A stretch of DNA of 64,000 nt from assembly GCA_046538415.1 (NCBI GenBank), contig JBKHIY010000009.1:7642-71641 (forward strand). The letters run 5' to 3'. A program made the position numbers and the translations under genes. The DNA is from Candidatus Brocadiia bacterium (GTDB lineage Bacteria; Planctomycetota; PUPC01; DSUN01). Of the stretch, positions 40,137 to 64,000 are shown one piece after another (within the stretch, counting starts at the first letter, position 1; every line of letters begins with the position of its first letter). The notes beneath the pieces were generated by a model. It made no database searches, had not been told where the DNA came from, and worked only from the letters and a program-made list of their open reading frames with translations.

Positions 40137-41987
40137 TTAGCCGAGCAGGCCGAGCACCAGCTGAGGCACCTGGCCAGCGGAGCCAAGCACCGTCATGCCG
40201 GCCTGGAGGAGGATCTGCTGCTTGGTGAACTCGCTGACTTCGACGGCGAAGTCGGCGTCCACGATGGTCGAGCGGGCGGACGTGAGGTTCTCGGAGGCGA
40301 CCCGCAGGTTGTTGAGCTGGCTCTCCAGGGTGTTGGCCTGGAAGGAGCCGATGTCGGACCGCACGTCGGTCACCTCGTCGATGGCCTGGTCGACCAGCAG
40401 CAGGCCGTCCTGGGCACCGTCGGAGGTGAGGACGCTGATCTCCGAGAGGTTGGAGAAGCCGCTGTCGGTGCTCACGTTCTCCGCCAGGGTGTCGGCCCCC
40501 ACGTCCAGGAGGCTCAGGGAGACCGTCTGGTTGCGGTCGCCGCCCACCTGGAAGACCAGGGAGTTGTCCACCACCTGGACGTCCTCGTAGGCATCGCTGC
40601 CGTTGAGGCGGATCTCGTTGCCGATGGTCACCCGCAGGGAGTTGCCCGAGTAGTCGTTGATGCTGAACTGGCTGTCCGCGGTCCACGTCACGGCCGTGCC
40701 GGCCACGCCGGAGCCGCTGCTGCCGCCCGCCGCGTCGTAGATGCGGGCCAGGCCGCTGGCGGCCGTGACGTTCACGATGGCGCTGCCCACGTCCAGCCCG
40801 GTGTTGTCGGCCTGGACCTTGAGCTGCCCGTCGTCGCCGTCGGAAAGGGTGACCGTGGTGTTCGTCGCGGCGCTGTCGCCCTCGACGTAGGACACGGTGT
40901 TGGCGCTGCCGTCCAGCTCCACCACCGCGTCGGTTCCCTGCGTCCCGTCGGCGTCGCTGTTGTCGCCGTCGGTGAACCCGGTGAGAACGCCGCTGAGGGC
41001 GTCGGTGTCGTCGTCGGGCGCGGCGATAGCCACGTAGGCGTCGCTGCCCTCGGAGGTGGTGCGGAAGCCGACGGTGTCGCTGTCCACCGCGTAGGCCTCG
41101 ACCTTCCCCCCGACGTTCCCGTCGGCGTCGATGGCCGCCTGGATGTCGGCGACCAGGGCGTCGAGGTCGAAGCCCCCGGAGAGGTCGACGTCGATCGTCA
41201 GGTCGGCGGACGTGACCTGGGCGCTGCCGTCGTAGACGGTGAGCTTGAACTCCTCGGGAGCCGCGCTGTAGTCCGTGTCGCTGGTGTCCACGTCGCCGGT
41301 GATGGAGCTGACGGTGGAGGCCTGGGTGACCTTGACCACGTGCGCTCCGGCCTCGAGCCCCTCCACGTCCTGCTCGGCGTCGGTGAGACCGCCGTCGACG
41401 AAGCCCAACGACTCGAGGGTGGTCGCGTCCTCAGAGTCCCACGAGGCGTCGGTGACGCTGTCGAGCTGGAGGCTATAGGTGCCCGTGGCCAGGGTGCTGT
41501 TGCCGAACGAGGCGTAGATGCTGTCGTTCGTCCCGTCGGCCAGGGACACCAGGTTGGCGGCGGAGCCGTCGAGGAGCTTCTTGGTGCCGAACGCGGTGTC
41601 GCGCGCGATACGGTCGAGGGTATCGAGCGCGTTGTCGATCTCGGCCTGGTTGGCGGCAAGCGAGTTGGCGTCGTTGGCGCCCTCGTTGGCCGAGTCGATC
41701 ACCAGTTCGCGGATGTGCACCAGGATGCTGTTGACCTCTTCCAGGGCGCCCTCGGCCGTCTGGGCCATGGAGAGCGCCCGCTCGGTGTTCTCCACCGCCT
41801 GGTTCAGCCCGGCGATCTGGGCTCCCTGCCGCTCCGCGATGGCCAAGCCAGCGGGGTCGTCGGCAGCAGCGTTGATGCGGAGGCCCGAGGACAGCCGCTC
41901 CAGCGCCGTCGACAGCGCGCGGTCTGTCCGCTCCACATTACGCTGGCCGATCAACGCGGCCATGTTCGTGTTGATGCGAAGACCCAT
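40137..41987 (-). CDS. fliC: flagellin (large, 616 aa)
   Basis: Inner part of ORF 40137..41996. ATG 41987 lies 9 nt after AAGGAGGA. The N-terminus is MGLRINTNMAALIGQRN...LSSGLRINAAADDPAGLAIAE. The C-terminus is ...DADFAVEVSEFTKQQILLQAGMTVLGSAGQVPQLVLGLLG. Confidence 0.95.
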   Translation of the reverse strand: MGLRINTNMAALIGQRNVERTDRALSTALERLSSGLRINAAADDPAGLAIAERQGAQIAGLNQAVENTERALSMAQTAEGALEEVNSILVHIRELVIDSANEGANDANSLAANQAEIDNALDTLDRIARDTAFGTKKLLDGSAANLVSLADGTNDSIYASFGNSTLATGTYSLQLDSVTDASWDSEDATTLESLGFVDGGLTDAEQDVEGLEAGAHVVKVTQASTVSSITGDVDTSDTDYSAAPEEFKLTVYDGSAQVTSADLTIDVDLSGGFDLDALVADIQAAIDADGNVGGKVEAYAVDSDTVGFRTTSEGSDAYVAIAAPDDDTDALSGVLTGFTDGDNSDADGTQGTDAVVELDGSANTVSYVEGDSAATNTTVTLSDGDDGQLKVQADNTGLDVGSAIVNVTAASGLARIYDAAGGSSGSGVAGTAVTWTADSQFSINDYSGNSLRVTIGNEIRLNGSDAYEDVQVVDNSLVFQVGGDRNQTVSLSLLDVGADTLAENVSTDSGFSNLSEISVLTSDGAQDGLLLVDQAIDEVTDVRSDIGSFQANTLESQLNNLRVASENLTSARSTIVDADFAVEVSEFTKQQILLQAGMTVLGSAGQVPQLVLGLLG

Positions 41988-42017
41988 TCTCAACATCCTC
42001 CTTGAAGGACTTCCACT

Positions 42018-42261: not shown

Positions 42262-42488
42262 GCCCCGCGGCGAAAAAACTCGCCGCCCCCCGCCGGGCCG
42301 CGCGCCGCCAGGCATATCTTGCGCTCGCGAGCCGACCGCGCTACCGTATGTCGTAGAGAAATCATGGCCACCCGCACGCCATTGTGCGAGTTATGCCACC
42401 GAGGCCCTAACATAAGGCATTGAAGCTGCGTGCGTTCCAGGCGGGCGAGAAAACGTAAGTGGAAAAAGGACGGAAAGGCGTTTTAAAC

Positions 42489-42517
42489 TTGACAGCGCCA
42501 GCGCGCGTCGGTATAAC
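42489..42517 (+). promoter_or_regulatory. sigma-70-type promoter, TTGACA-17 nt-TATAAC
   Basis: -35 at 42489-42494 and -10 at 42512-42517, in a locally AT-richer stretch about 74 nt upstream of the MerR-like gene. Confidence 0.6.
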
Positions 42518-42590
42518 CTGAGTCGACCTGGATCATCACAAAATGTAGGACTTGTCCTGCGCCACAAGCCCGCCATCTAGTGGAGGAAGC

Positions 42591-42818
42591 ATGGGAGTCT
42601 TCATCAAGGACGCTGCCCACGACATCGGCGTCTCGCCGGCCACCCTCAAGCGGTGGTTCCGCGACGCCAAGGTCCGCGACGTGGCCCGCGACCGCAACGG
42701 CTACCGCATCTTCGAGCCCGCGGATATCGACCGCATCCGCCGCTACGCCGAGCAGCGCTTCGAGCCGCCGCCCCTGCCGGCCAAACGCCGCAGCCGCATC
42801 GGCGCCTCGCAGTCCTGA
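42591..42818 (+). CDS. stand-alone MerR-type HTH protein (BldC/excisionase-like, 75 aa)
   Basis: Inner part of ORF 42552..42818. ATG 42591 follows GGAGGAAGC. It reads IKDAAHDIGVSPATLKRWFRDAKVRDVARDRNGYRIFEPADIDRIRRY, a MerR N-terminal DNA-binding domain with no effector domain. Confidence 0.7.
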   Translation: MGVFIKDAAHDIGVSPATLKRWFRDAKVRDVARDRNGYRIFEPADIDRIRRYAEQRFEPPPLPAKRRSRIGASQS

Positions 42819-42858
42819 GCCGCCTCCCGGCCCGACGCCGCCCCTCGGACGGGGACCG

Positions 42859-43821
42859 ATGCCCAACAACGCCTTCTTCAAGTTCTTCCAAGACCTCGTG
42901 CTCTCCGAAACCTGGAAGAAGCTCACCCCCTCCGCGCGCACCCTCTACCCCGTCCTCGCCATCCACACCGACAAGGACTTCAAGCCCGTCTACCCCTCGC
43001 TCAAGCGCCTCAAGGCCCTCAGCGGACTCGGCAACAGCGGCATCGCCTCCGCACTGCGAAGCCTCGAGGAAAATGGCCTCGTGCGCATCTGGTCGGGAAA
43101 GCACAAGAGCGGCAACGTGCCCAACACCTACGAGTTCACCTTCGAATACGCCGGCTGCCAGATCTCCCTACCCCCGCTGCAGGGCAAGGCTACCCCCGCA
43201 GTGGGTCTAGGGCATGCCCCGGCACAGGGCAAGGCTACCCCCAACGCAGGCCAGACCCTTGCCCCCCAGGAAGAAGAGCTTGCACCCCAGAAGGCCACGA
43301 ACAAGAAGAACAAGAAAACAAGAACAAAGAGAACAAGAACCAGCACAACAAATACCACCATCCAGGGCGACGTGCACATCAATATCGACCACGGCCCCAA
43401 GCCCGCGGTTGTTGAATCCCTCAAGCAATTCTTCTCCGAAAGCCTCGCCCGACAGCTCGCCCAGGAGCACCCCCCGGAGTACATCCAGGAGAAAATCGAG
43501 ATCACCCGCTACAACCAGGAACGCGGCAAGGTGCGCGACCCCGCCGCCTACCTCCGCCAGGCCATCTCCCAGGACTACGGTCGTCCCACCGGCTTCACCA
43601 CCTCCGCCGAGCGCGAGCAGGCCAGGGCCCAGGACCACCAGTTCCAGGAGCTCAAGGAGCGCATCCAGAAGGGCCAGGTCACCATCGCCCGCCACCGCAC
43701 CACCGGCCAGACCAACCTCGTGGACGTCCCCGCCGACCTGGCCTACGTCATCCTCCAGAGCCGGCGCGGCACCCGCTGCATCAACTCCTGGGACGACGCC
43801 CAGCAATACCACTTCCAGTGA
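42859..43821 (+). CDS. winged-helix DNA-binding protein, replication-initiator/phage-O-like (hypothetical)
   Basis: Inner part of ORF 42580..43821, ATG 42859. The N-terminal wHTH reads LTPSARTLYPVLAIH..SLKRLKALSGLGNSGIASALRSLEENGLVRI. A K/N/T-rich linker follows. The C-terminus has ..RDPAAYLRQAISQDYGRP.., reminiscent of plasmid/phage Rep proteins. The functional call is weak. Confidence 0.6.
   Translation: MPNNAFFKFFQDLVLSETWKKLTPSARTLYPVLAIHTDKDFKPVYPSLKRLKALSGLGNSGIASALRSLEENGLVRIWSGKHKSGNVPNTYEFTFEYAGCQISLPPLQGKATPAVGLGHAPAQGKATPNAGQTLAPQEEELAPQKATNKKNKKTRTKRTRTSTTNTTIQGDVHINIDHGPKPAVVESLKQFFSESLARQLAQEHPPEYIQEKIEITRYNQERGKVRDPAAYLRQAISQDYGRPTGFTTSAEREQARAQDHQFQELKERIQKGQVTIARHRTTGQTNLVDVPADLAYVILQSRRGTRCINSWDDAQQYHFQ
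43180..43242 (+). repeat. 18-nt perfect direct repeat (CAGGGCAAGGCTACCCCC) x2, 45 nt apart, inside the wHTH gene
   Basis: 43180-43197 and 43225-43242. Each copy encodes QGKATP. Confidence 0.9.
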
Positions 43822-43901
43822 CCGCCGGCCCGCGGGCCGCCCAGAAGCCGCGGCCGGACTTCGTCGGGGAGAATGGGCCGGGAGGGGAAAGCGGGCGGAC
43901 C

Positions 43902-44129
43902 TCAGGTGCCGAAGAGCTTGCCGATACCCAGGACCTGGCTGTCGGAGGAGGAGGCGGCGGCCCGGTTCTCCTCCCGGATCTGGTCGTAGATTTCCTTGCG
44001 GTAGACGGGCACGGCGCGGGGGGCCTGGACTCCCAGCTTCACCTGGTGGCGAGAGATCTCGAGGACGTGGATCTCCACGCTGTCGCCGAGGACGATGGAC
44101 TCACCCTTGCGGCGGGTTAGCACAAGCAC
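43902..44129 (-). CDS. csrA: carbon storage regulator CsrA (flagellar type)
   Basis: ORF 43902..44135. GTG 44129 lies 6 nt after AAGGAGG and gives the canonical N-terminus (M)LVLTRRKGESIVLGDSVEIHVLEISRHQVKLGVQAPRAVPVYRKEIY. Confidence 0.9.
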   Translation of the reverse strand: MLVLTRRKGESIVLGDSVEIHVLEISRHQVKLGVQAPRAVPVYRKEIYDQIREENRAAASSSDSQVLGIGKLFGT

Positions 44130-44586
44130 GGGCAACCTCCTTGTTGCGCCGCCGCTCGCCCGCGCCGGGGTGGACGGGATAACGGACGGGAAGTTCGCGA
44201 CTCTGAAGCACCACCTGCATGGCGGTGGCGTCCCGCGTGTTCCACACCACGGGGGCCCGGAGGTTCGCGGTGATCGACTGGGGGTCGAGGCTGAGGGTCA
44301 GCAGGAGGAGCAGGCGCGCGTCCTCGGCCCGCTCCAGGCCGATGGCCGCGGCGTCCGCGTCGTCCAGCTCCAGGCCGTAGTCCTCCACCACCAGGTAGGC
44401 GTCCACCAGGGGGAAGAGCACCTCCGGCGCCTCCACGCACTGGGCCCAGAAGACGGGGCGGCTCGCCTCGTCCTCGATGAATGCGTAGTCGGTCCACTGG
44501 CCGAACCCGAGGATGGGGCGCACGAAGCGCACCACCCGGCCCTCGGGCACCTCGACGGTCCCGAAACGGCAGCTCTCAACCTGCAT
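44101..44586 (-). CDS. fliW: flagellar assembly factor FliW
   Basis: ORF 44101..44586. FGTVEVPEGRVVRFVRPILGFG..DYAFIEDE..FWAQCVEAPEVLFPLVD..ANLRAPVVWN. Confidence 0.88.
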   Translation of the reverse strand: MQVESCRFGTVEVPEGRVVRFVRPILGFGQWTDYAFIEDEASRPVFWAQCVEAPEVLFPLVDAYLVVEDYGLELDDADAAAIGLERAEDARLLLLLTLSLDPQSITANLRAPVVWNTRDATAMQVVLQSRELPVRYPVHPGAGERRRNKEVARACANPPQG

Positions 44587-60118: not shown

Positions 60119-60258
60119 TCTGTAGCCTGTGGGCTGGGCGAGGACGGAATGTGAGCGGCGTGAAGCCCGCTTTTTGTTTGTCCGTCTGCTGTCCCAGACA
60201 ATCCAGGACAAGGCAGGACAGACTCAGACGCTGCCGACGCGCAGGAGGAAGGGAGCCG

Positions 60259-60456
60259 ATGGGCAGGAAGTCGAACGGCCGCATGACCATCAGCGAGGCG
60301 GCCAAGCGAGTGGGGGTATCCCCAAAGACCCTCCTTCGTTGGGAGAAGGCGGGCAAGGTCCAGAAGCCGAAGCGCGATTGGCGCGGCTGGCGGGTCTATG
60401 AGGAGGAGGACGTGAACGAGCTTCAGGCTTTCCACGACCGCTTGAGTCGTTGGTGA
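60259..60456 (+). CDS. stand-alone MerR-type HTH protein (BldC-like, 65 aa)
   Basis: Inner part of ORF 59983..60456. ATG 60259 follows AGGAGGAAGGGAG. It reads MTISEAAKRVGVSPKTLLRWEKAGKVQKPKRDWRGWRVYEEEDVNELQAF, a paralog of the protein at 42591. Confidence 0.7.
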   Translation: MGRKSNGRMTISEAAKRVGVSPKTLLRWEKAGKVQKPKRDWRGWRVYEEEDVNELQAFHDRLSRW

Positions 60457-60518
60457 GCGGCGCGGTTCCTGTCTACCCCTTTCGTTTGGACCCTCAAAGC
60501 TTGGGTTTGGAGAACGAG

Positions 60519-61304
60519 ATGACCGGCAAGGCTCACGTGTGGGTGATCGGGGTGCTCGGGCTGGCCCTCTGTGGGTGCTATCCGCGCCTGGAGTACGCGG
60601 ACCTGGAGAAGGAGTGGACGCGCCACGAGCTGCGCCAGCTCGAGAAGCGCTTCGAGCGGCTCAACGGGACCTACGAGATCGGGGTCCCCGACACCATCAA
60701 CGTCAACGTGCCCGACCACCCCGACCTGAGCGGGACCTTCGAGGTGCGGCCCGACGGCAACATCTCGTATCCCCTGCTGGGCGACGTCTACGTGGAGGGC
60801 CTCACCCCCATGGGGGTGAGCAAGATGCTCGCCGACCGCCTGGAGGCCTACGTGCAGAAGCCGGAGGTCCAGGTGACCGTGACCGGCTTCTACAGCAAGC
60901 AGGTCTACGTATTCAGCCGCGTGCGCCAGGGCGGCACCCGGTTCCCCTTCACCGGCGACATGAGCGTGCTCGACCTCATCGCCATGAACGGGGGATTCAG
61001 CCGGCTGGCCCGTGCGGACAAGCTTCGCCTGATCCGCGACGACCCCGAGGGAGCCCAGGTGTTCCGCATCTACGCGGGGCGGATGATGCGGGGCGACCTG
61101 ACGACCAACATCATGGTGAAAGAGAACGACACGCTCTACATCCCGGCCCACTGGTGGGCGGAGGTGGCCTTCGCGGCGGAGACCTTCTCCTATCCGTTCC
61201 GCGCCCTGGTCACCGGGCTCTACCACATCGGCGCCGCGCCGTACGAGGTCACCCGCGGTGCCCAGGAGTGGGAGCGGCGTAGAGAGGACATCGACGACCG
61301 TTAA
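60519..61304 (+). CDS. polysaccharide export protein (Wza/Poly_export + SLBB-like), probable lipoprotein
   Basis: Inner part of ORF 60450..61304, ATG 60519. N-terminus MTGKAHVWVIGVLGLALCGC. It reads YEIGVPDTINVNVPDHPDLSGTFEVRPDGNISYPLLGDVYVEGLTPMGVSKMLADRL..VTVTGFYSKQVYVFS. Confidence 0.8.
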   Translation: MTGKAHVWVIGVLGLALCGCYPRLEYADLEKEWTRHELRQLEKRFERLNGTYEIGVPDTINVNVPDHPDLSGTFEVRPDGNISYPLLGDVYVEGLTPMGVSKMLADRLEAYVQKPEVQVTVTGFYSKQVYVFSRVRQGGTRFPFTGDMSVLDLIAMNGGFSRLARADKLRLIRDDPEGAQVFRIYAGRMMRGDLTTNIMVKENDTLYIPAHWWAEVAFAAETFSYPFRALVTGLYHIGAAPYEVTRGAQEWERRREDIDDR

Positions 61305-61384
61305 GCGTGGCGTGTGCCGGCGGGCGGGGGCGACGCGTGGCGCCCCCGCCCCGGGCGCCGACCAGGAAGGGAGCACCGAGACCC

Positions 61385-62986
61385 ATGCCAGAAGTCCAGT
61401 CCCAGGCACAGCAGTTCGATTTCTACAAGTACCTCCGTGTCCTGTGGCGACGCAAGTGGCTGCTGATCATTCCGCTGGCCATTTGCGTGCCCTTCTCCCT
61501 GTGGCTCGCCTACATCTACCCCACCGAATATGAGTCCCGGGCCGTCCTGGAGCTTCGGGACAACCGGCCGGTGGGCGAAGAGCGGCCCCTGCGCATCGAC
61601 GTGAGCCGCGAGCTGGAAGCGGTGCGCATGACGATGCTCAGCTGGAACGCCGTGCGGGAGGTGATCCTGAGCCGCAAGGTGGAGTTCCCCGTCGAGGTGG
61701 ACCCCGATGACCGGCGGCAGATCGAGCGCATCTACCACAAGATCGCCAAGGGCACGCGGATGTCGGCCCGCGGCGCCCGCCACCTGATCGTCACCTACCG
61801 CAGCCGCTACCCCGAGCTCAACTACACCCTCATCAACGAGCTGGTCAAGAAGTTCGTGGGCGAGGACCGCGAGGAGGCCCAGGACAAGGCCCGCAAGGAC
61901 CTCAAGTACTACAGCGAGAAGCTGGCGGTGGCCAAGGCCCGCCTGGGCGAGATCGACAGCCAGATCCGCGAGTTCCACTCCGCCAATCCCTGGCTCACCG
62001 ACACCCTGCCCGAGCTCCAGAAGCAGTACGAGGACGCCCAGGAGCGCGAGCTCGCCGTGCGTCAGGAGCTCAAGGAGTGCCAGGCCCAGATCGAAGAGGT
62101 GGAGAAGGAGCTCAAGAAAGAGAAGCCGGAGATCCACATCACCCGCAAGGTGGAGCCCTCCGAAGAGGTCCGGGCCGCTCGCGAAGGTTACGCCGAGGCG
62201 GAGCGCTACTTCAAGGCCATGAAGTCCCGCTACACCCCCGCTCACCGCGACTACCAGAAGGCGGCCCGCATGTTCGCCGAGGCCGAGGCCAACCTCAAGG
62301 AGGTCGACCAGGGCGAGCAGACCATCGAGGAGACGGTGCCCAACCCCAAGTACGAGGAGCTGGCCAGCCGCCTCGAACAGCTCAAGAAGAAGGCCGAGCG
62401 CCTCCAGCAGCGTCAGCTCCTGGAGAACAAGAAGGTCAGCGAGCTGTACGTCAAGGTGCGCCGGGCCCCCGAGCTGCTGGCCCAGAAGCGGGCCCTCCAG
62501 GAGGACCGCGCCGCGGCGGCGGCCACCGTGGAGGACTACACCAAGGGCGCCCGGGCCGCCGACAAGAAGCTCCAGCGGCTGATGACCGAGGCCTACAGCA
62601 CCCGCTACGTGGTGCGGGAGTACGCCCGCGACGACCGCACGCCGGTCAAGAGCACCCAGACCAAGATCGTGGCCCTGGGGGTGCTGCTCGGCCTCCTGGT
62701 GGGTGTGGGGCTGGTGGCCCTGATCGAGTACCTCGACCAGACGTTCAAGACCATCGACGACGCCCGGGCCTACCTGGGCATCCCGGCCCTGGGCATCGTG
62801 CCCGCCATCTACACCCCGCGGGACCACCGCCGACGGCTGTGGTTCCGCGTCCTGGCCGCCAGCTCCGCGGTGTTCGTGGTGGGGGTGGCGGTGGCCATCT
62901 ACGTGATGATCCCCAGCGTACACGAGTTCTTCCGCAACACTGCCTGGGTGAAGTTCAAGGAATTCGTCGGCTACTCCCAGTGGTGA
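61385..62986 (+). CDS. polysaccharide chain-length determinant (Wzz/GumC/EpsF-like; no kinase domain)
   Basis: Inner part of ORF 61307..62986, ATG 61385. YKYLRVLWRRKWLLIIPLAICVPFSLWLAYIYPTEYESRAVLEL is followed by a long coiled-coil periplasmic region. C-terminal TM segments are present. Confidence 0.8.
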   Translation: MPEVQSQAQQFDFYKYLRVLWRRKWLLIIPLAICVPFSLWLAYIYPTEYESRAVLELRDNRPVGEERPLRIDVSRELEAVRMTMLSWNAVREVILSRKVEFPVEVDPDDRRQIERIYHKIAKGTRMSARGARHLIVTYRSRYPELNYTLINELVKKFVGEDREEAQDKARKDLKYYSEKLAVAKARLGEIDSQIREFHSANPWLTDTLPELQKQYEDAQERELAVRQELKECQAQIEEVEKELKKEKPEIHITRKVEPSEEVRAAREGYAEAERYFKAMKSRYTPAHRDYQKAARMFAEAEANLKEVDQGEQTIEETVPNPKYEELASRLEQLKKKAERLQQRQLLENKKVSELYVKVRRAPELLAQKRALQEDRAAAAATVEDYTKGARAADKKLQRLMTEAYSTRYVVREYARDDRTPVKSTQTKIVALGVLLGLLVGVGLVALIEYLDQTFKTIDDARAYLGIPALGIVPAIYTPRDHRRRLWFRVLAASSAVFVVGVAVAIYVMIPSVHEFFRNTAWVKFKEFVGYSQW

Positions 62987-63021
62987 GCGGATAGTCCCTG
63001 GGCCTGCGGTGGGACGAGCCC

Positions 63022-64000
63022 ATGTACGAGAAGTACTACGGCTTCGACGAGAAGCCCTTCAACCTGACGCCCGACCCGGACTACTTCTTCCTCAGTTCGG
63101 TCCACAAGCGGGCCCTCGACTACCTGGTCTACGGCCTGGAGTCGGGGATGGGCTTCATCCAGATCACCGGGGAGATCGGCTCGGGCAAGACTACCCTGAT
63201 CAAGTGCCTGCTGCGGAACCTCAGCCGCCAGGTCAAGGTGGCCTACGTGCTCCACTCCAAGGGCACCTTCCTCCAGCTCCTCCGCATGGTGCTGGAGGAC
63301 CTGGAGGTGTTGGGCATCGACCAGAAGCTCTCCAAGGAGGCCCTCCTCAGCCGGTTCCGCGACTACCTGGTGGCCCAGGCCCGCCGCCACAATAGCGTGG
63401 TGATCATCATCGACGAAGCGCAGAACCTCCAGCTCGACGTGCTGGAGGAGCTGCGCATGCTGTCCAACTTCGAGACCGAGAAGTCCAAGCTCCTCCAGAT
63501 CGTGCTGGTCGGCCAGCCCGAGCTGCGCGACCTGCTGCGCCGCGCCGAGCTGGAGCAGCTCCGTCAGCGGATCACCGTGCGTTTCCACCTCTATCCCCTC
63601 AACGAGCAGGAGACCCGCAGCTACATCCAGCACCGCCTCCGCGTGGCCGGCTCGGACGGCCGCGTGCGGTTCACCGCCGGCGCCTGTCAGCTCATCCACC
63701 GCTACGCCCGGGGCCTGCCCCGCCTGATCAACGTGGCCTGCGACGCCGCGCTGCTGGCCGGCTTCGTGGAGGAGCGGCGGGTGTTCAACGAGCGCTTCGT
63801 GCGCGACGCCCTGCTGGAGCTGGCCGACGAGCGGCCCGAGCTGCTCGCCCCCCAGGAGGGGGGAGCCGCGGCCGAGCCGGTGCTGGAGCGGCCCGCTCGC
63901 CGCGGCGGCCTGGTCGTGGCCCTGGTGGCCGCGGTCCTGGCCCTGGGCCTGGCCGGCGTGCTGGCCGTGGCCCACAGCCAGATGGCCAACGGCGGCGGGG
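63022..64000 (+). CDS. ExeA-like AAA ATPase (PEP-CTERM-locus secretion ATPase type); 3' end runs off the window
   Basis: Not in the ORF track because no stop lies in the window. Manual translation from ATG 63022 gives MYEKYYGFDEKPFNLTPDPDYFFLSSVHKRALDYLVYGLESGMGFIQITGEIGSGKTTLIK.. (Walker A), VVIIIDEAQNL (Walker B) and LVGQPEL. The frame is open to 64000. Confidence 0.8.
   Translation, partial: MYEKYYGFDEKPFNLTPDPDYFFLSSVHKRALDYLVYGLESGMGFIQITGEIGSGKTTLIKCLLRNLSRQVKVAYVLHSKGTFLQLLRMVLEDLEVLGIDQKLSKEALLSRFRDYLVAQARRHNSVVIIIDEAQNLQLDVLEELRMLSNFETEKSKLLQIVLVGQPELRDLLRRAELEQLRQRITVRFHLYPLNEQETRSYIQHRLRVAGSDGRVRFTAGACQLIHRYARGLPRLINVACDAALLAGFVEERRVFNERFVRDALLELADERPELLAPQEGGAAAEPVLERPARRGGLVVALVAAVLALGLAGVLAVAHSQMANGGG

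Follow-up and report, generated by a model that had tools for sequence, protein, structure and literature searches.

Two plus-strand genes between fliC and csrA

The stretch of DNA analyzed here (the window; 64,000 nucleotides of contig JBKHIY010000009.1, from a Candidatus Brocadiia bacterium of the Planctomycetota) contains a flagellar locus, and the junction between its fliC and csrA genes holds a plus-strand operon of two genes, first a small MerR-type gene and then a gene for a protein resembling replication initiators (Rep-like; Table 1). An earlier note on this DNA had read the pair as a foreign insertion that splits csrA from fliC. Our comparison with related genomes speaks against that: the pair has very probably been inherited vertically across one Planctomycetota family rather than inserted recently. 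Further, the ancestry of the Rep-like protein is likely that of a plasmid-type initiator, and we lean, by a small degree, toward the view that the operon is a domesticated module, built like the cop-rep operons of plasmids, with a role in the host that is independent of the flagellum. The source genome (G000; ~70% GC, 4.9 Mb, 219 contigs, 85% complete) is a metagenome-assembled genome (MAG), as are all of the genomes compared with it, including the related family genomes (G numbers); L numbers denote contig or locus records.

The first gene encodes a 75-residue protein with a MerR-type helix-turn-helix (HTH) and wing DNA-binding domain (MerR_1, 30.4 bits, cut-off 21.6; PHROG MerR-like regulator, E 7e-6) and no effector-binding domain, C-terminal coiled-coil dimerization helix or further domain. 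In all nine orthologous loci its gene immediately precedes the Rep-like gene, and its orthologues (65-78% amino acid identity) diverge after about residue 58 into a short tail that is either basic or rich in proline. BldC is a MerR DNA-binding domain that lacks an effector domain, and the likeness to BldC put forward in the earlier note holds for this stand-alone architecture only; no specific sequence similarity was detectable, BldC being absent from the matches of a phmmer search against PDB chains (E ≤ 10), among which 2jml, 3qao, RacA, and others were listed. Among solved structures, the nearest to it is 2jml, a MerR-like DNA-binding domain (E 0.011). The window also encodes a second stand-alone MerR (merR2), ~45% identical to the first, which heads a PEP-CTERM-type polysaccharide export operon (Poly_export-Wzz-AAA_22); this arrangement is kept in G001, G005, and the record L039 (JGI 3300009034 contig Ga0115863_1000034, 6493-12691).

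The second gene encodes a 320-residue protein, the N-terminal domain of which matches HTH_36 (37.7 bits, cut-off 25), while matches to PHROG families for a replication initiation protein (E 2e-8), a DnaD-like helicase loader (E 2.5e-8), and an O-like initiator extend over residues 3-270. The initial reading of the pair as an effector-less MerR HTH protein and a Rep-like winged-helix protein is thus borne out, and the latter does contain the K/N/T-rich linker and the RDPAAYLRQAISQDYGRP segment. The N-terminal winged helix is the most constrained part (84-92% amino acid identity). Behind the linker follows a helical domain (the C-module) with a conserved motif (YPPEYIQEKIEITRYN...RDPAAYLRxA(I/L)SQDY), for which a search of the PDB with the confident model returned no solved fold that resembles it, and then a small beta domain that is specific to the family formed by the orthologues and a paralogue, with conserved residues (ARH, DVP.D..Y.IL, RC, and W) and without a family or fold match. 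A profile search of the whole protein against PDB sequences gave no meaningful match and no DnaD. Its full AlphaFold model, in which the winged helix spans residues 1-95 and the helical domain residues 182-270, aligns lengthwise with phage replication initiators and replisome organizers (E 2e-5), with template modeling (TM) scores that are low because the linker is flexible.

The promoter, TTGACA-17-TATAAC, agrees with 11 of 12 positions of the sigma-70 consensus and is the sole site in the 64 kb to score at least 10 of 12, in keeping with the claim that it is the best such promoter in the window; a standard promoter scanner passes over it, since the -10 hexamer ends in C. The block CTTGAC-N16-GGTATAACCT is kept in all nine aligned orthologous loci, as are the first ~30 nucleotides of the leader and its Shine-Dalgarno block. 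Genome-wide, the pattern TTGAC-N16-GGTATAAYC (at most one mismatch) occurs seven times, versus zero for a reversed control pattern, so the operon promoter looks like a host promoter of the housekeeping type. The pattern may approximate the housekeeping consensus of this planctomycete, the -10 hexamer being extended by a preceding GG. Sites of this pattern lie on the G000 contigs C4, C14, C88, C125, C182, and C201. Beside the expected transcription start, the leader carries a palindromic GTCGAC (GTYRAC across loci), which makes GTYRAC/GGTATAACC a candidate operator element. Two other explanations of the leader's conservation were rejected: an RNA structure (-2.6 kcal/mol, with little covariation) and an upstream open reading frame ending at a conserved TAG, since the reading frames differ between loci. 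A scan of the whole window against Rfam returned zero families.

At its other end, the operon converges on csrA. No terminator was called in the 80-bp gap between the two stops, which folds with no extra stability relative to shuffled sequence (z +1.47), and the corresponding gap is 1 bp in L041 and ~14 bp in L014.

Table 1. Features of the fliC/csrA junction and of the polysaccharide export operon, in window coordinates
Feature	Positions	Strand	Details
fliC	40137-41996	-	Neighbor on one side of the two-gene unit
Promoter	42480-42517	+	T-rich stretch, TTGACA 42489-42494, 17-nt spacer, TATAAC 42512-42517
Leader	42518-42590	+	Conserved 5' part (CCTRNGTYRACCYRGCGCA..CAA), variable GC-rich middle, conserved ATCTAGTGGAGGA Shine-Dalgarno block
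Palindromic GTCGAC	42522-42527		Candidate operator
Shine-Dalgarno GGAGGA	42582-42587		
MerR-type HTH protein	42591-42818	+	75 aa; MerR_1
Rep-like protein	42859-43821	+	320 aa; HTH_36 (PF13730) at residues 21-75
N-terminal winged helix	42859-43149	+	Residues 1-97; HTH_36; helices and wing in the AlphaFold2 model
Central disordered linker	43150-43398	+	Residues 98-180; predicted local distance difference test (pLDDT) below 50
First direct repeat	43182-43197		16 bp, GGGCAAGGCTACCCCC
Second direct repeat	43227-43242		16 bp, GGGCAAGGCTACCCCC
A-rich tract	43296-43354		AGA, ACA, and AAA codons
Helical C-module	43399-43668	+	Residues 181-270; AlphaFold2 pLDDT ~90 when modeled alone
C-terminal beta domain	43669-43821	+	Residues 271-320 and stop; strands predicted, low confidence
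Gap between convergent stops of the Rep-like gene and csrA	43822-43901	.	80 bp
csrA	43902-44135	-	Neighbor on the other side of the two-gene unit
merR2	60244-60456	+	Second stand-alone MerR
Polysaccharide export operon	60450-64000		Poly_export-Wzz-AAA_22

Conservation of the pair and staged loss of flagellar genes

Orthologues of the Rep-like protein (66-72% identity) occur in six of the eight related family genomes, which adds four further genera, and in all six they form the orthologous pair with the MerR-type gene. A paralogue (~36% identity) is present in four family genomes, including the source genome, such that seven of the eight genomes searched hold an orthologue or a paralogue; neither was found in 16 genomes of the class's other families. 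In all, roughly 45 orthologue clusters were found. At least five genera share the operon together with its promoter and leader (66-83% amino acid identity). The gene order fliD-fliC-merR-rep-csrA-fliW-flgL-flgK is the same in the window, G003, G004, G006, and the ENA contig L041, and every flagellate family member examined carries the pair at the fliC/csrA junction, a result that the earlier note had itself named as telling against an insertion. In flagellate families of the outgroup (L033, L035, L036, and L037), csrA is the last gene of a flgK-flgL-fliW-csrA operon; a non-flagellar gene comes next, and fliC is not nearby. There was thus no ancestral csrA-fliC adjacency to split, and, because the outgroup csrA is followed by unrelated genes, the tight fliC-csrA neighborhood is a peculiarity of this family.

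The reading frames are intact in all nine orthologous genes examined, with 81-83% identity within a genus and 66-76% between genera. As judged from these alignments, the operon is under purifying selection, with constraint stronger than on the neighboring flagellar genes. Specifically, the ratio of nonsynonymous to synonymous substitution rates (dN/dS) lies at 0.11-0.30 in the winged helix and at 0.2-0.5 in the C-terminal part, versus 0.4-0.8 for fliW, flgL, fliD, fliS, and flgI in the same genome pairs, values that are meaningful only relative to the neighbors and are used only in that way, because the Nei-Gojobori (NG86) estimates are inflated by strong codon bias and saturation. As to the lower GC claimed for the segment, dips exist at 42300-42600 (0.57) and 43050-43500 (0.57-0.60), versus ~0.70 around them, and are restricted to the promoter and leader and to the central linker of the Rep-like gene rather than spanning the whole segment. 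They are not a foreign signature, since the folded domains are host-like in codon usage and in GC at third codon positions (GC3, 0.87-0.97), and only the linker is enriched in A/T, in all orthologues. The opposite strand together with a local GC dip is no evidence of a recent foreign insertion here.

These observations bear on the idea that the pair is the decayed remnant of an integrative element that entered the csrA-fliC junction recently, and that it is functionless and heading for loss. Genes of the Rep-like and excisionase-like (MerR/HTH_17-type) kinds are typical cargo of integrative elements, the unit runs on the strand opposite to its neighbors in a region of lower local GC, and the family is confined to one lineage of the class. 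Yet position and sequence are conserved across at least five genera, the frames are intact in nine of nine loci, constraint exceeds that on the neighboring genes, the folded domains use host codons, the pair outlasts the loss of its surroundings (see below), and the outgroups lack the csrA-fliC adjacency. As the earlier note had remarked, the usual hallmarks are missing too: a tRNA scan of the window returned zero, a search for flanking direct or inverted repeats of the att kind gave short matches at chance level only, and no tyrosine integrase was found on the source contig. We consider decay of such an element scarcely credible. A mobile element more generally (an island, a prophage remnant, or an integrative and conjugative element) was rejected for want of integrase, tRNA, and flanking repeats, and because the site is occupied in all flagellate relatives. 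Close relatives of the Rep-like protein were not found in phage records or IMG/VR.

Outside the flagellate members, the pair has outlived its neighborhood. Searches for Flagellin_N and CsrA gave no match in G001 (96% complete), G005 (91%), G007, or G008, and the pair is nevertheless retained at ~70% identity in G001, G005, and G008, so its co-occurrence with flagellar genes fails in these three. In G001 and G005 it sits between a sigma-54 response regulator gene and the merR2-Poly_export-Wzz-AAA_22 genes. The window has the orthologous flanks at 25.5-26.9 kb and 60.2-64 kb, so the two genomes lack ~16 kb of flagellar genes on each side (~32 kb in total). The locus in L039 (75% identity) represents an intermediate state, FliS-pair-CsrA-FliW-FlgN, from which fliC, fliD, flgK, flgL, and the flgH/flgI block have been lost without pseudogene remnants. 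The FliW-CsrA partner switch is thus still in place at that locus although its flagellin partner is gone from it, and the flagellar regulon decays in stages. Since the pair survives where the surrounding flagellar genes are lost, its job is probably not a flagellar one. The suggestion of a domesticated DNA-binding pair is upheld, whereas a dedicated regulator of fliC or csrA finds no support, given that the pair is retained in genomes in which flagellin and csrA were not detected.

The synteny also lends itself to a more conventional explanation, the main one of its kind, in which the pair is a transcription-factor module of the decision between motile and sessile life that controls the adjacent PEP-CTERM-type exopolysaccharide (EPS) export operon and might, in flagellate members, extend to fliC or to csrA, which it would reach through convergent antisense transcription. 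The pair lies between late flagellar genes and merR2-Poly_export-Wzz-AAA_22, 2-4 kb from the export operon in G001, G005, and L039; a paralogous small MerR heads that operon; the paralogue of the Rep-like gene adjoins genes for a PEP-CTERM protein and a small secreted protein; and the terminator-less gap of 1-80 bp between the Rep-like gene and csrA would suit antisense control. However, the pair is not adjacent to EPS genes in G008, it persists in genomes in which neither csrA nor fliC was found, its conserved C-module is used by replication initiators rather than by known transcription factors, and the motif repeated within the Rep-like gene has no copies elsewhere in the genome. On balance, we consider a transcription-factor role unlikely, if less so than the other alternatives weighed here.

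Probable plasmid-type ancestry of the Rep-like protein

The preferred reading, a domesticated replication module, draws on the relatives of the Rep-like protein in plasmids. A search of plasmid records matched residues 3-137 to an HTH_36 protein that adjoins parA-parB on pTURPA.01 of Turneriella parva (30% identity), and residues 180-254 to residues 315-391 of the "replication initiator protein A" (RepA) of pPL62-2 from Planctomyces sp. SH-PL62 (36% identity, E 9e-12, BLASTP). The former is directly homologous in its N-terminal winged helix (HTH_36 is matched by it and by the paralogue alike) and the latter in its helical C-module; the pPL62-2 protein (L047, 3059-4534), also encoded beside parA-parB, differs in that the C-module forms a C-terminal extension to an RPA domain (PF10134), which takes the place of the N-terminal DNA-binding domain. 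Both proteins belong to parAB-rep plasmid backbones, without a MerR partner, and lack the C-terminal beta domain. An exhaustive profile search collected 928 proteins at E ≤ 1e-3, in which the orthologues form one cluster at 50% and the paralogues score ~1e-45; the remaining matches lie at or below 1e-20 in score, and many cover only the C-module, behind HTH_36 or Phage_rep_O heads. The C-module thus looks like a portable initiator module that is placed behind three DNA-binding heads (HTH_36, RPA, and Phage_rep_O, the last in metagenomic proteins) and has a confident predicted fold without a solved relative. This makes it a candidate domain for replisome recruitment in a phylum where little is known of plasmid and chromosome replication and where shuttle vectors are in demand. 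HTH_36-type initiators have been reported for three planctomycete plasmids (bioRxiv 10.1101/2024.01.22.576637).

The closest parallel in layout comes from the theta plasmids of staphylococci. The Rep of pSK41 has 319 residues, and its N-terminal winged helix binds four Rep boxes in the central part of its own gene; the peptide in the center can be dispensed with, and the C-terminal domain is specific to the host. A variant initiator, that of pPR9, carries an HTH_36 (PF13730) N terminus (PMC5703833). The window protein shares with these the length of ~320 residues, an N-terminal winged helix, a lineage-specific C-terminal domain, and a linker whose protein sequence shows little conservation and whose DNA is A+T-richer and bears repeats. 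In contrast, it is encoded by a single-copy chromosomal gene that is inherited vertically and lacks accompanying par genes; its small regulator is a MerR-type protein rather than the antisense RNA of pSK41; its C-module is unrelated to any solved structure; and its in-gene repeats are a candidate origin only. The top Foldseek matches of the N domain in the PDB are the RepA_N initiators 5kbj, 4pql, and 4pt7 and the DnaD N domain (2v79), all four at probability 0.9-0.99 and E ~0.07-0.15, and RctB domain 1 is also near; throughout, the probability is high and the E value weak. For RepA_N itself (PF06970), the likeness is structural (E ~0.07-0.1, probability 0.96-0.99), with no sequence match in Pfam at E ≤ 1.

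A likeness to the DnaD/DnaB (DDBH1-DDBH2) primosome proteins of Firmicutes is also apparent, in the PHROG match to a DnaD-like loader, the fold match to the DnaD N domain (2v79, probability 0.9, E 0.14), a Y-x3-A-[ILV]-x3-[YW] motif, and the full-length fold matches to phage initiators. The DDBH2 motif of DnaD is YxxxIxxxW (PMC2978336). The C-module was rejected as a DDBH2 domain, since its Y231-x3-A-I-x3-Y240 places the aromatic residue at +9 rather than +8, with no fold match to the DnaD C domain in the PDB; the Pfam DnaD_N model gives the N domain 13.4 bits (E 0.089), against a cut-off of 27. DnaD/DnaB also belong to another phylum, and DnaA is present in the family of the window protein. 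Because the C-module fails the strict DDBH2 test, we name the protein initiator-like and not DnaD; it adds an uncharacterized protein, paired with a partner of the MerR type, to the HTH_36 initiator-like superfamily.

The operon as a whole recalls the cop-rep operons of small plasmids, such as copG-repB of pMV158, in that a small DNA-binding protein is cotranscribed ahead of an initiator from one strong promoter that bears a palindromic element. It differs in that CopG is a ribbon-helix-helix protein and not of the MerR type, and autoregulation here would follow by analogy. The most plausible history is one in which a plasmid- or phage-type replication module, composed of a small regulator and an initiator, would have been captured at or before the origin of this uncultured Planctomycetota family and would since have been passed on vertically as a single-copy chromosomal operon, with the MerR-less paralogue inherited likewise. 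If so, the locus records the long-term domestication of a plasmid-type replication module, with the operon as an island of retention amid a decaying flagellar regulon.

Linker-coding DNA and the role of the pair

The part of the Rep-like gene that encodes the linker is unusual at the DNA level. GC3 over residues 98-200 falls to 0.55-0.74, versus 0.87-0.97 for residues 1-97 and 201-320, in all nine orthologues, and the paralogue family shows the same kind of dip in its center. A/T-ending codons make up 40-56% of those for Arg, Leu, Ala, Thr, and Val over residues 98-200, versus 1-8% in neighboring genes, and these rare codons occur at host frequency in residues 1-97 and 201-320. The linker-coding DNA contains two perfect direct repeats, 45 bp apart, which are the only copies of their sequence in the 4.9-Mb genome, so that they were rejected as sites of a regulon. 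Downstream lies the A-rich tract, made of codons that are otherwise nearly absent from the genome. The rare GCT codon of Ala111, inside the first repeat, is invariant in nine of nine orthologues, and at the same place in the second repeat, GCT stands in seven and CCT in two. The number of repeats differs among orthologues, from three in P0010 to zero in P0045. At synonymous sites of the linker, composition is kept rather than sequence, except for the GGCAAGGCT core.

One potential explanation is that the gene remains part of an active replicon, with the binding sites of its initiator and an easily melted tract lying in the gene's central part, where the peptide would be dispensable. The locus would then serve either as an origin on the chromosome, secondary or conditional, or as an entry site for replication restart. 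The layout equals that of pSK41 Rep, and pPR9 shows that an HTH_36 N terminus works in such a layout (PMC5703833). RepA_N initiators are the top fold matches, and the C-module is shared with a genuine plasmid RepA. Two 16-bp repeats that are unique in the genome stand next to an A-rich tract of rare codons, the A/T enrichment and the GCT codon in the repeat are kept in all nine orthologues, and a varying number of repeats would be expected if the peptide itself were unimportant. If the plasmid-derived initiator did still fire, or load replisomes, at its own in-gene site, this would be why the 1.6-kb unit is kept intact amid the surrounding deletions. Against this, no DnaA boxes were found in the window, and neither GC skew nor gene orientation switches at the locus; the linker keeps composition and not sequence, save for the core named above, which relaxed selection or selection for rare codons in a disordered linker would fit equally well; the orthologue P0045 has no repeats at all; and the family has DnaA. 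To our knowledge, no natural second origin has been established on a bacterial chromosome. We therefore regard an active in-gene site as improbable, although, if true, it would give this planctomycete family a second, DnaA-independent entry point for replication or restart, and the locus would be of much higher interest if the repeats were a working origin.

Returning to the domesticated module, we can propose, tentatively and with considerable doubt as to the details, how the pair might work. The MerR-type protein would regulate its own operon in the manner of a Cop protein, acting on the palindromic element that adjoins the -10 hexamer. The Rep-like protein would bind specific DNA through its winged helix, its C-module may contact replication or repair proteins of the host, and the two proteins together would serve a host function independent of the flagellum. 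Given the convergent arrangement, antisense read-through into csrA could occur in flagellate members, but it cannot be the reason for the retention of the pair, and any effect on csrA or fliW through convergent transcription would be a side effect in those members.

Several points weigh against this interpretation. The C-module, as modeled, is without a solved structural relative and falls short of the strict DnaD motif. The EPS locus adjoins the operon in G001, G005, and L039, where a regulatory role is accordingly possible. Selection is read from dN/dS values that carry the inflation described above. Finally, with MAGs as sources, the genome-wide "absence" of flagellar genes means only that they were not found, while the local deletions at the locus are seen directly.

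The paralogue lies in the source genome on contig C54 (L002, 1397-2308, plus strand) and is also represented by L019, L020, and L021. It has an HTH_36 domain and the motif GYLRRALEDGW, is 63-80% conserved in the four family genomes that carry it, lacks a MerR partner, and always adjoins a gene for a secreted protein of ~130 residues without a Pfam match. Replacement of DnaA by the Rep-like protein was rejected, since DnaA is present in seven of the eight related family genomes and in the source genome. In G008, the only relative assembled as a single contig, dnaA lies 127 kb from the Rep-like operon (C1, 2725429 and 2852880), ~2% of a 6-Mb chromosome; elsewhere, dnaA and the operon fall on separate contigs.

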